Origin: Eledone cirrhosa
Taxonomy: Eukaryota
Direction of reading: 5' to 3'
DNA length: 64,000 nucleotides
Assembly (NCBI GenBank): GCA_964016885.1
Contig: OZ024741.1
Coordinates: forward strand, 191,456,001-191,520,000
Shown one piece after another: positions 36,465 through 55,323 of the stretch (position 1 is its first letter; every line of letters begins with the position of its first letter). The notes under the pieces are model-generated. The model was not told the origin of the DNA. It was given only the letters and a program-made list of their open reading frames with translations, and did not search any database. Position numbers and translations under genes: made by a program.

Positions 36465-36649
36465 TAAACAATGAGTTATTTGGTTTGTTGATTATTCAAC
36501 AACAAAGTTAACTTACAACAGATTAGAAGCACTCAAAGGCATTTATCCAGAGTATCATTAATATCAATAATATTAATAAATGGAAAATATCTTTATAAAA
36601 TAAATATGGTTTTATAAAGATATTTTCCATTTATTAATATTATTGATAT
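36465..36649. mobile_element. Fold-back element, same family as 54815-55255
   Basis: 40-bp arms at 36561-36600 and 36610-36649 with a 9-nt loop. The arm and the extension to about 36465 resemble 55123-55250 (taaatatggttttataaa..tttccattt, ttgagtgctt, ttgttg..caacaa). Confidence 0.7.
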
Positions 36650-36809
36650 ATATATATATTTAATATAGAAATCTACAGGACTAGAACTGTTTCATTCGGA
36701 AGAAATCATTAGGAAAGCCTTGAGTACCTTACTTACTGTGGTTACCCCCAATTGAACCGGGATAAACATATATGTATATATATATATATATATATATGTA
36801 TGTAAAAGA

Positions 36810-39710
36810 TAAACAGAAATAACAACACAATCGGTACAGTATATGGAAGGTATATATTAGGTTAACGCTTGATATAGCAAGAAGAGGGTCTTAACGTTTT
36901 GGTCGTAACGGTTCAGAAGAAAGAATGAGAAATAAAATAGATTGAGGGGACGGGTGGGATGGAATTGGAAAAAATGTCTTTAGATAAAAATAACAGGTCC
37001 ATTCATGTTGACATCTCTTGCAAAACTGTGGTGTTGGCGTTTTGTGTATGATTTGTTTTTTAGAAAAGTGGATGATGGCGCGCGTCTACCTGAAATGGAA
37101 AAAAAACTGTTTTGTAAAAAGAGCTATACTTGAGCATGTGCGTAAGCATGAGTTTGTGTGTCTGTGTGTGTGTGTGTGTGTGTGTGTGTGTGTGCGTGTG
37201 TGTGTTATTATAGGTCCGTACGAAGCTAAGAAGAGATGTGTGTGTACATGTGAGTAAAAGAGTGTGTGTGCATGTAAGTACGAAGCTATGAGCAAAAGTA
37301 TGTTAATATAAGGGTGTGTATCGGCATGTATTAGTAGTAAGAGAAGCTGCTAAGGATCAAGAGAAAGCGATAGGAATCTAGGGGTGTGATAATGGACGGG
37401 GTATTAGAGAAATTGGGGAGGTGAGTTGAGTCCAAGAGGGGAATAGGACCCAAGGCGGTGAATCAGACTTTGTTCAGTCCTGGTGCGCGAGGCCTGTGAT
37501 CCATGATGTAAAAGGACACCCAGGACTGAAACATGTAGGGAAGAATGACCAGGAGAACAGAAATGACAGGCGACAGGAGTATCCAAACCGAGTCGTATGC
37601 CCCTCAAATGTTCGGCAAAACGTTCCGCCATACGGCGTCCCGTTTGTCCGATATATAAAGACTCGTAAAGGGAACGCTGGAGGGCATAGACAACGTGGGT
37701 GGATGTGCAGGTGAAGGAATGGTGGATACGGAAAGACCTGTTAGGGCCTGTAAGAGTGGTGAGGGTGGAAATAAAGGGACAAGTGTTGCAGCGGGAAGGG
37801 GAACAAGGATGAGAACCGGGTGGAGTCGTGGGAGAGGACGAAAAAGAACTGCAAACCAGGAGGTCGCGGAGGTTTCGGGCGTGCTTAAAAGTAATAATCG
37901 GTGGGTTTGGAAAAAAGCAAGAAGTGACGGGGGTCAGAAGAGAGGATACGGAAGGAACGGAAGATATGTCGCTGGAGTGGTAGGGTGATGGGGTGGTAGG
38001 TGAGAGGGAAAGGAACACAGGTGTTGGGAGGGCGGGGGTGAGGTGAGAGGGCTGTGGTGCGGTCTGTTTCATGGGTGCTAGTGAGAGCAGCTTGGATCAA
38101 GGTGGGGGGATATCCACGCTGGATGAAGTAGGAAGCCATGCGAAGGGGATGGGTTTCGAAATCGTCGTCCTGGCTACAGAGCCGACGAAGACGAAGTAAT
38201 TGGGAATAGGGTATGGAGTGTTTGGTGTGGGTTGGATGGGAGGAAGTGAAGTCGAGGTAAGAGTGGGAGTCTGTTGGTTTAATGTAGATGGAAGTAGAGA
38301 GGGTGTGGAGAGAGTGATCAATAGATAAAGAGAGATCTAGAAAAGGGACAGAAGAATCGGAGACGGAGGCGGTGAAATTGAGAGCAGGATAGAAAGATTG
38401 GACAAAAGAAAGAAAACAGTCGAGCTGTTCTCGTGATAGAGAGGTGGCGCCGATACAGTCGTCGATATAACGACCGTATAGCTCAGGAGTCGCTCCAGCG
38501 TACTGGGAGAAGATCTGGGTTTCGACGTAGCCAACAAACAAGTTGGCATAGTTTGGACCCATTCTGGTTCCCATCGCTACCCCCAGAGACCTGATGATAA
38601 AATTCACCTGAAAAAGAAAAGCCATTGAGGGTGAGAACAAGCTCAGTCAGACGGAGAAGAATGATAGTGCTGGGGTAAGGGGTAGGGCGTAAATCTAAAA
38701 AATGTTGGAGAGCGCGGAGGCCGTCATCATGAGGGATGACAGTATAGAGTGAAGTGATGTCCAGGGTAAAGAGAAGGTGGGAGGGACCAGGAGGGAAGGA
38801 GAAAGAGTTGAAAAGTCTAAAGGCATGATTTGTATCCTGGATGTGGGAGGGGAGATTGCTGACCAACGGGGTGAGGATGGTGTCTAAATATTTAGAAATT
38901 ATCTCGGTGGGGCAGTTTCACGCAGAAACAATAGGACGCCCGGGATTATTTTGTTTGTGTATTTTGAGGAGAAAGTAGATGGTGGGTGTGCAAGGGGTGC
39001 GTACAATACAGTTGGTGGCTGTGGGGGGTAAGTGAGAGGAGAAGATGAACTCGTGGATGGTGGAGGACATGAGTTGTTGGTAGCCAGGAGTGGGATCGGA
39101 GGATAAAGGGCAGTAAAAAAGGGTATTATGAAGCTGGCGGAGAGCCTCAGCCCTATAGAGGTCAGCGCTCCAAACCACCACAGCGCCACCTTTGTCAGCG
39201 GGTTTGATGACAATGTCATCACGACACCGAAGGTTGCGAAGAGCAGAGAGCTCAGTTCGCGTGATGTTAGAGCGACGAGAATGCTGGTGGAAACGGGACC
39301 GATTCACAGTACGCCGGCAAGTATCGACAAAGGAGTCTAGATTGCTGAACTGGCCAGAGCTCAGCGTCCAATGTGATTGCCGGCGACTGAGGCGAGTGAA
39401 GTCATCCGTCTGTGTTGATGATGGCGTGTCGTGAAAAAAAGCTCTCAGCTTTCGACGGAAGAACCCTTCAGTCTCGGCACGTGTGTGGAACTCGTTGCAG
39501 GTAGATGTGGTTGGTATAAAATGCAAACCACGGGTGAGGAGGGGACGCTCAGCTTCGGAGAGTGGTAGGTCCTGGGGTATGGTAACTACAGTGCAGGGAT
39601 GTGAGGGAGTGAAAGAGGCGGAAGCGGGGGGGTCAAGGTGGTTGGGTAAATCGTGTGCAGATACAGTGGTAGGTGATGGGATAGAGAGGTTAGGGCTGGA
39701 GGTGATATGA
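36810..39710 (-). mobile_element. PLE with RT, Cys motif and C-terminal GIY-YIG endonuclease (Neptune-like)
   Basis: IKPADKGGAVVVW, GRPIVS, TLDITSLYT, GVAMGTRMGPNYANLF, RYIDD, VPFLD, HPCSPSRCNTCPF, VVYAL..LYIGQTGR..ERFAEH, PLGLN. A decayed HHR-like terminal motif lies at about 36885-36925. Confidence 0.92.
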
Positions 39711-39744
39711 GTATATATATATATATATATATATATATATATAT

Positions 39745-54571: not shown

Positions 54572-54797
54572 TATTTAATTATGTAATAAACAAGACAATA
54601 CAATTATTCCATTACCAAAGGTTTCAGGAAACTAGATGATCCTTACAGAAACGTCCAGCTCATTTATAGAATGAAATAGTTATATATAGTTAAATAGCTA
54701 TTTCATGAGCTGGACGTTTCTGTAAGGATCGTCTAGTTTCCTGAAACCTTTGGTAATGAAATAATTATATTGTGCTGTTTATTATCTAATTTAAATA
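54572..54797. repeat. Fold-back palindrome carrying a core-deleted hammerhead
   Basis: Arms of about 100 bp (cattaccaaaggtttcaggaaactagatgatccttacagaaacgtccagctcat and its reverse complement). The left arm has a 9-nt insertion. Confidence 0.9.
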
Positions 54798-54814
54798 TAT
54801 ATATATATATATAT

Positions 54815-55164
54815 GATATTAAACAAATGGAAACTATATTTATAAAACCATATTTATTTCATTATACATATTTCGGGGATACCATATTAAAAATATGGCA
54901 TGCCTTCTTCAGATAAAATACAATATATAAGCAGTTTTATAAATAATTTTGACGTACCATAAATATTGACCAACCATTATGTAAAACCAGCTTTTTACAT
55001 AACGGTTGGTCAATATTTATGGTACGTCAAAATTATTTATAAAACTGCTTATATATTGTATTTTATCTGAAGAAGGCATGCCATATTTTTAATATGGTAT
55101 CCCCGAAATATGTATAATGAAATAAATATGGTTTTATAAATATAGTTTCCATTTGTTTAATATC
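54815..55164. repeat. Near-perfect fold-back palindrome with 172-bp arms and a 6-nt loop
   Basis: Arms at 54815-54986 and 54993-55164. I saw one mismatch, near the loop. Confidence 0.97.
55059..55124 (+). ncRNA. Type I hammerhead ribozyme motif (mirror copy on the minus strand at 54855-54920)
   Basis: UAUUUUAU-CUGAAGA-[AGGCAUGCCAUAUU-UUU-AAUAUGGUAUCCCC]-GAAA-UAUGUA-UA|AUGAAAUA. It has an 8-bp stem I, an intact core, a long stem II with two mismatches, a self-complementary stem III and an AUA triplet. Confidence 0.65.
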
Positions 55165-55323
55165 GTATATCTACTCCAAAACTTGTTGAGTGCTTTATAT
55201 CAGTTATAAAATATTTACTTGTTGTAACCCAACAATTTTATATAAAACTTTTGCATATATATATATATATATATAATGTGACAATCAACTATCTGCATGT
55301 TTGTATCTGTACTCTATCTACAG

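Follow-up and report, generated by a model that had tools for sequence, protein, structure and literature searches.

Penelope-like elements (PLEs) encode reverse transcriptases (RTs) that form the sister group of telomerase. As defined in the available parts of PMC8557442, the Hydra clade of PLEs has one open reading frame (ORF) for an RT with a C-terminal endonuclease, RWK-like, DKT, CxCx5C, CxxC and CxH motifs, (TA)n targets and canonical hammerheads. The supplement to that report includes an octopus Hydra member, and the text names the origin of PLE inverted repeats and one-sided tails as an open problem. Here we describe four long hairpins (elements A, B, C and D) in a 64,000-nucleotide stretch of the Eledone cirrhosa genome (contig OZ024741.1, positions 191,456,001 to 191,520,000; hereafter the window). 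An earlier reading of the letters alone (the original prediction) had taken them for non-coding, retrozyme-like fold-back elements in which an antisense arm locks a hammerhead ribozyme. We consider it fairly probable that each is instead a head-to-head, 5'-truncated insertion derived from the hammerhead-bearing 3' end of a Hydra-clade PLE, likely formed by twin priming at (TA)n from two fixed RNA start points.

An arm scan of the window located long hairpins at 36561-36649 (A), 51139-51319 (B) and 54809-55170 (D), and folding with self-BLAST of the locus (L034) placed another at about 54572-54797 (C). A (TA)n run adjoins each of them, at one end or both, so the four inverted repeats abutting (TA)n that had been predicted are present. 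Tails, expected for A and D, were identified on one side of all four elements, which with their tails occupy 36465-36649 (A), 50989-51320 (B), approximately 54531-54797 (C) and 54809-55255 (D). A is akin to the region of D that lies 3' of the hammerhead, as predicted (BLAST matches of 76-86%). The arms are high-copy, which speaks against chance: in the 3.0-Gb genome there were approximately 1,550-1,700 first-look candidates per arm, and for each family 40 of these were scored and 30 retrieved.

Coding copies of D were collected using the RT beside a D arm as the query (20 of 40 matches fetched). They are approximately 4.1 kb long and consist of the tail, an ORF, a 1.6-kb 3' untranslated region (UTR), the hammerhead and the end. 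At locus L158, an open ORF of 742 amino acids lies upstream of the D terminus and carries RWRA, DKT, YRDD, CxxC and CRH motifs; the CxCx5C linker is intact in sister copies. These motifs match the published definition, and by them the arms would belong to the Hydra clade. Coding copies of B (18 of 40 B RT matches fetched) have a D-like layout with the RT followed by the endonuclease, in broken ORFs. Their fragments carry RWK, CxxC and CRH motifs, with a different linker spacing, and inverted B arms 2-8 kb apart flank RT and endonuclease fragments. The nearest Atlas clusters score 0.98, and some have RVT_1 or GIY-YIG. Judged from sequence, the arms of families B and D represent the 3' termini of protein-coding PLEs of the Hydra clade, and in this the original prediction of a PLE relationship was correct. 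The putative link of A to PLEs rests on its likeness to D, of which it is a sister by sequence, and on flanking ORF fragments, identified between inverted A termini at locus L182.

Two other classifications were considered and set aside. A terminal inverted repeat (TIR) DNA transposon or miniature inverted-repeat transposable element (MITE) is out, given the RT and endonuclease between inverted arms, the asymmetric ends and the unique junctions. The Naiad clade is out because the endonuclease is C-terminal and the hammerheads are canonical. The loci also held a long open ORF of a third Hydra-type family beside a D copy (L153:5489-7852), and a rearranged A copy (L214:1240-1600) in which the second stem-loop (see below) is followed directly by an E1-like end with no ORF. 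The latter is possibly a short non-autonomous derivative.

The arms terminate at two fixed sites, a near end (E1) and a far end (E2), spaced by approximately 60 (C), 85 (D), 92 (A) and 160 nt (B). Among the loci collected, inverted pairs were head-to-head in 76 cases and tail-to-tail in one, which is split by a TA run; the predicted tail-out orientation is thus the rule. After removal of three segmental duplicates, the remaining 73 pairs comprise 67 E1+E2, six E2+E2 and no E1+E1 combinations. The A and D queries included the tail, which leaves E1+E1 pairs under-represented in these two families; the 31 pairs from B and C are free of this bias. In the 67 mixed pairs, the E2 arm is confined to the distal tail in 11, the E1 arm is longer in 30, the E2 arm is longer in 17 and the two are equal in nine. 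Junction coordinate pairs are distinct in 72 of 73 cases. The palindromes thus arose as the elements inserted, not by copying of a master hairpin.

The two arms of a D insertion differ by 0.65 per 100 nt, compared to 4.0 between insertions and 0.84 when the arms lie kilobases apart, and they share 1.55 variants per 100 nt compared to 0.30 between insertions. B and C follow the same trend, as does A in differences but not in shared variants. The sharing of private variants shows that both arms come from one source. Junctions overlap by at least 1 nt in 34 of the 73 pairs, where microhomology was taken from BLAST overlaps alone, with no control. An apparent D fold-back hotspot near -190 was attributed to the query, which required 256 nt of match. 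In raw reads (seven runs from another study), 5,713 reads exit at 55170 into (TA)n, confirming E1, and several other junctions were also seen. The opposite-strand joint of tail to core occurs in 86 and 110 reads, from one or two start positions.

The ends are followed by (TA)4 or more in most samples of A, B and D (two figures per family: D 29/34 and 46/60; B 24/30 and 26/37; A 12/17 and 24/28), and in 16/27 and 15/46 for C. At E2 of family C, 12 of 46 copies end in (CA)n in place of (TA)n, which matches the sequence at the end of the element itself; this is almost never seen at E1. The 5' ends of 161 bystander arms are not clustered at the ribozyme cut, with four in the central 11-nt bin and 2-11 in neighbouring bins. 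There is thus no sign that ribozyme cleavage sets the 5' ends, and uncleaved RNA is the likely template.

A bulged stem-loop (RCUC-stem-UW-GAGY) lies 0-12 nt downstream of the ends. It was identified past E1 in all four families; past E2 it is known from B, D and a single copy of A. Where D copies stand in tandem, the tail continues into the ORF, and downstream of either end there is a TA-rich stretch with an RCUC-stem-UU-GAGY hairpin after it. The bulge past E1 has the UU-type form in A and B, as in D, and is UA in C. The E1 stem-loop of B has an expanded 45-nt loop. A second motif after E2 was predicted from D and then found in B, where seven tandem copies continue past E2 and most contain the exact motif. 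That after E2 of A is known from one copy, identified in a genome-wide pattern search.

The association of this motif with ends extends beyond the four families. Where a motif site has at least two homologues, these end in (TA)n just upstream at 131 of 152 sites, compared to 59 of 1,559 random sites, the motif-site counts being inflated by related copies and by loci picked for families A-D. Counted by sequence cluster, 25 of 41 are end-associated, including families unrelated to A-D. When only CTC/GAG is demanded, the four free positions are paired in 72, 71, 65 and 62 of 112 end-associated clusters (55-64%), and in 554, 496, 508 and 500 of 1,375 other clusters (36-40%). Compensatory exchanges (A-U/G-C and U-A/C-G) are present in the free pairs of these related clusters, with no formal test, and one position has G-U pairs in 11 of the 112. 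We also sampled 55 arbitrary stretches of 10 kb (L129-L143 and L217-L256; 549.8 kb in all). In these the motif occurs 65 times, compared to 32-38 in controls, with a hammerhead within 250 nt upstream in nine cases and downstream in none. By eye, the motif is present in three of six Hydra consensus sequences in File S7 of PMC8557442: Hydra-2_Amil (coral) and Hydra-2_Ajap (sea cucumber) carry it at the 3' end, and Hydra-1_Ajap has two copies ahead of the ATG. The stem-loop likely tells the enzyme where copying starts.

The predicted hammerhead scaffolds are real at the level of families, which have CUGANGA or CCGAUGA cores and GAAA; in the window they are complete only in D. There, a type I descriptor gives two matches, the two D arms, with CUGANGA, GAAA, UH and stems I-III. 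The hammerhead of B is cut within stem II, a 9-nt deletion has removed the CUGAUGA core from that of C, and A begins close to the cleavage site. The original prediction correctly quoted three GAAA-stem III-UH strings and the stem I strands common to two of the elements. Among the loci of each family, the full descriptor is present in 29/30 (D), 15/30 (B), 14/30 (C) and 6/30 (A). Family B (e.g., L002 and L003) has CCGAUGA as a variant core, and its stem II region is 82 nt long. A search of Rfam returned no hammerhead among 84 matches at E<=5, only matches of hairpin type that fell below gathering scores.

The arbitrary sample contains 51 descriptor-complete type I hammerheads, compared to one to three in Markov controls. 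This corresponds to an estimated 280,000 or so hammerhead motifs in the genome (bootstrap 170,000-390,000). They belong to many families and mostly have a palindromic stem III, and opposite-strand pairs were head-to-head in six cases and tail-to-tail in none. A published survey, in the sections available, called 4,000-9,000 hammerheads per genome remarkable (PMC4209133). The load estimated here would be well over these counts, which were obtained with a different descriptor. PLE hammerheads are described in the accessible text of two reports as weak as monomers or protein-dependent (PMC4209133; PMC11167929).

We propose that the RT-endonuclease would bind each stem-loop and so be placed a few bases upstream of it, where the TA-rich template at the start could pair with the nicked target. 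Both target strands would be nicked, and each would prime a cDNA, with E1 as the start for one and E2 for the other. These cDNAs would stop early, and their 3' ends would be joined head to head by microhomology or short fill-in. An E2 cDNA that halts in the tail would yield an inversion without duplication, and one that passes E1 a palindrome with a one-sided tail. The template would be uncleaved RNA, either a single molecule, which would involve strand displacement, or two molecules from the same locus, and a ribozyme lock would be a by-product. The Anolis Poseidon PLE (Frangieh et al., 2024; PMC11167929, as far as its text was available) extends both target strands in vitro, starting at two internal sites that bound the tail; RNA downstream of the starts is needed and ribozyme cleavage is dispensable. 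The twin-priming scheme fits this behaviour. We give about an even chance to the broader proposition that a duplicated, phylum-spanning stem-loop sets two RT starts, one per cut target strand, and that such programmed twin priming explains both the PLE tail and the inverted pseudo-long terminal repeat (pLTR), and has seeded this genome with on the order of 10^5 hammerhead motifs and long perfect hairpins.

Several results weigh against twin priming from stem-loop-marked ends of Hydra-clade PLEs. Pfam and PDB searches of the L158 ORF gave no significant match and no RT. A coding partner for C was not found among the loci examined, which included 30 further loci used to extend the family upstream; homology fades approximately 300 nt upstream in a low-complexity region that lacks ORFs. 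No motif was identified after E2 of C, where the two pattern matches are an insertion into a long interspersed nuclear element (LINE) and a site beyond a TA run. In the arbitrary sample, an exact motif lies up to 250 nt downstream of only nine of the 51 hammerheads. De novo scanning of clusters with TA ends recovered it in 11 of 79 rows (0.3% in shuffles); simple repeats and near-variants account for many of the rows without it. The stem-loops are no more stable than shuffled sequences in eight of nine fragments (the exception is C), and several fold otherwise in isolation. In File S7 of PMC8557442, Hydra-1_Crog and Hydra-1_Obim have imperfect variants only and Hydra-1_Amil has none. Fold-back copying is compatible with 26 of the 67 mixed pairs. 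Lastly, the Poseidon enzyme shows no strand preference for either start site in the data available (PMC11167929).

The motif could act as DNA, with an endonuclease that recognises it and cuts or resolves an intermediate beside it, the tails being products of cleavage. In the account of Craig et al., the tail results from resolution by the endonuclease (PMC8557442, in part), the tail of the D. virilis element is needed for endonuclease recognition (as cited in the accessible portion of PMC11167929), and the CTC/GAG core is conserved in sequence. We nevertheless regard a DNA motif as unlikely, given that the pairing covaries and includes G-U pairs, that the post-E2 motif is absent from finished insertions, and that the two ends are RT start sites in the Poseidon assay, as reported in the available text (PMC11167929).

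Somewhat less likely again is self-priming, in which one strand of the same elements folds back and is copied. This has been proposed for rotifer Penelopes on an antisense template (PMC3846280, in the parts available), and would be in keeping with the private variants shared by arms, the overlapping junctions and the compatible mixed pairs noted above. In 41 of the 67 mixed pairs, however, neither arm contains the other (11 with tail-only E2 arms and 30 with longer E1 arms), so simple fold-back copying is excluded for those, and 11 are without any overlap. In addition, the tail-less arm halts at a fixed site and does not run into the flank.

The original prediction of non-coding, retrozyme-like palindromes mobilised as units, with the antisense arm as a selected ribozyme lock, now appears improbable, and for A, B and D the unit model is largely refuted. 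The tail-out orientation of every inverted pair but one is in its favour, as are the lack of a coding partner found for C and the D core, predicted to be fully paired in the hairpin. However, the B and D arms continue into ORFs, 72 of 73 junctions are new to their insertion, 5' ends are not piled up at the cut, and 178 sampled termini have no adjacent antisense arm. No head-to-tail tandem array of monomers was identified at the four window elements (other short arrays in the genome were not searched for). The lock fares better as chemistry than as function. Transcription through the D copy of the window would produce the antisense arm first, and the core is predicted to be fully paired; yet a complete ribozyme is missing from three of the four copies in the window, and nothing points to selection for a lock. 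It is physically plausible, would follow from the geometry and is unneeded, and so looks like a by-product.

Assembly or amplification fold-back artefacts are very improbable: no read or contig in the seven runs spans a whole window palindrome, but arms differ by mismatches and indels, flanks are unmirrored, ends are fixed and asymmetric, and raw reads of another study support the exit at 55170, other junctions and the tail-to-core joint.

If twin priming from stem-loops applies, a template-positioning structure would bear on template choice by PLE and telomerase-type enzymes, and the stem-loop might be used to deliver RNAs of choice to a PLE enzyme. It may also mark PLE ends that repeat annotation could misfile as MITEs or microRNA hairpins.

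The copies in the window can be described in these terms. In A, the arm to E2 (36465..36601, minus strand) has an approximately 92-nt tail and is truncated downstream of the hammerhead. The arm to E1 (36595..36649, plus strand), which begins near the ribozyme cleavage site, overlaps it by 7 nt. The stem-loop past E1 (36531..36553, minus strand) has a mutated upper stem. In B, the E2 arm (50989..51234, minus strand) has an approximately 160-nt tail, and an 11-nt deletion near 51138 has removed the 5' strand of the E1 stem-loop. The 3' half of its hammerhead (GAAA, palindromic stem III and UU) is at 51199..51210 on the minus strand; the 5' half is past the truncation and is present in other B copies. 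The E1 arm of B (51234..51320, plus strand) ends in (TA)n and has a mutated stem III. In C, the tail-bearing arm (54531..54683, minus strand) has an internal deletion in its tail, and the stem-loop past E1 (54551..54571, minus strand) has a UA bulge. The E1 arm of C (54705..54797, plus strand) has a hammerhead without CUGAUGA, with the 3' half at 54743-54755.

In D, the E1 arm (54809..54986, minus strand) includes a complete type I hammerhead at 54855-54920. The E2 arm (54984..55255, plus strand) has E1 at 55165-55170, followed by an approximately 85-nt tail ending in (TA)n. Its hammerhead (55059..55124, plus strand) comprises an 8-bp stem I, CUGAAGA, a long stem II, GAAA, a short stem III and UA, with a predicted cut after 55116. 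The stem-loop past E1 (55173..55191, plus strand) has a UU bulge, and a second copy of it follows E2 in tandem copies elsewhere.

D ends (55255) 67 nt upstream of a host splice acceptor and of the exon (55323..55475, plus strand) that encodes the first half of a PLAT domain. A second PLAT-domain exon is at 57252-57386, and C and D lie upstream of the internal exon at 55323. No upstream exon was identified among the 70 of 127 plus-strand frames scanned, so the single intron of the original prediction is putative, above all for A and B. The 180-bp near-perfect D hairpin beside the acceptor is a candidate RNA-editing substrate. PLE ends are nested in one another's TA flanks: the end of another PLE-like family, with a hammerhead-like half and a tail, lies within the TA run of A (36650-36750), and C and D are arranged likewise. 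Also present are a coding remnant of a related Hydra-type PLE (linker and endonuclease; 49119..49949, plus strand) and an interrupted RT-endonuclease remnant of another (44447..46087, minus strand). Further upstream are a Helitron remnant with Helitron_like_N and PIF1 domains (29700-33500), a 32-bp tandem array with 112 copies and 93% matches (24877-28448), and a 22-bp tandem array (16694-19320) whose orientation flips at both ends, giving large inverted repeats.

Twin priming of L1 uses two primers, one per target strand, and gives a head-to-head inversion joined by microhomology. In L1 the second start is internal and varies in position, and there is no duplication, whereas in our elements the two starts have fixed positions 60-160 nt apart and a duplicated 3' end is usual. 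Non-LTR retrozymes share a type I hammerhead and a PLE origin with our elements, but form head-to-tail tandem units with a ribozyme in each, as far as the accessible text describes them (bioRxiv 10.64898/2026.07.22.740005), whereas the elements here are head-to-head truncations of coding elements with unique junctions. Schistosoma PLEs have paired minimal hammerheads on opposite strands, 100-700 bp apart, with palindromic stem III, ascribed to truncated PLEs; no end geometry is described in the available parts of that report (Cervera & de la Pena, 2014; PMC4209133). Anolis Poseidon is alike in that two internal RT starts delimit the tail, both strands are cut and extended, and cleavage is dispensable. 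It differs in that copying starts at an AC-rich stem-loop with no strand preference, and no downstream duplicated motif or link to inverted copies was found in the accessible text (PMC11167929). The text of its supplement has no match for four terms; its GenBank file and figures could also hold information relevant to it.

The closest systems are the Hydra-clade PLEs of PMC8557442 (in the parts available), including Hydra-1_Obim and Penelope-13_HM, with which our elements share ORF motifs, a 3' hammerhead, (TA)n targets, an inverted 5'-truncated copy and a tail at one end. The tails here are longer (approximately 60-160 nt, compared to 30-40), as are the elements (D is approximately 4.1 kb, with its 1.6-kb 3' UTR), and stem II is long (31-82 nt). 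Neither the E1+E2 rule nor the duplicated bulged stem-loop was found in the main text of that report. Across the available parts of PMC4209133, PMC8557442 and PMC3846280, pLTR hammerheads, opposite-strand pairs, inverted 5'-truncated copies and one-sided tails are already published. No prior description of twin priming, the E1+E2 rule or the stem-loop in PLEs was found in the literature searched, which excluded most subscription papers and the older Penelope structure papers. New here are the E1+E2 pairing rule and the covarying stem-loop past each end. Thus, we conclude that the elements are not retrozymes but, most probably, new members of the Hydra clade of PLEs, and that the proposed mechanism is a new, testable variant.

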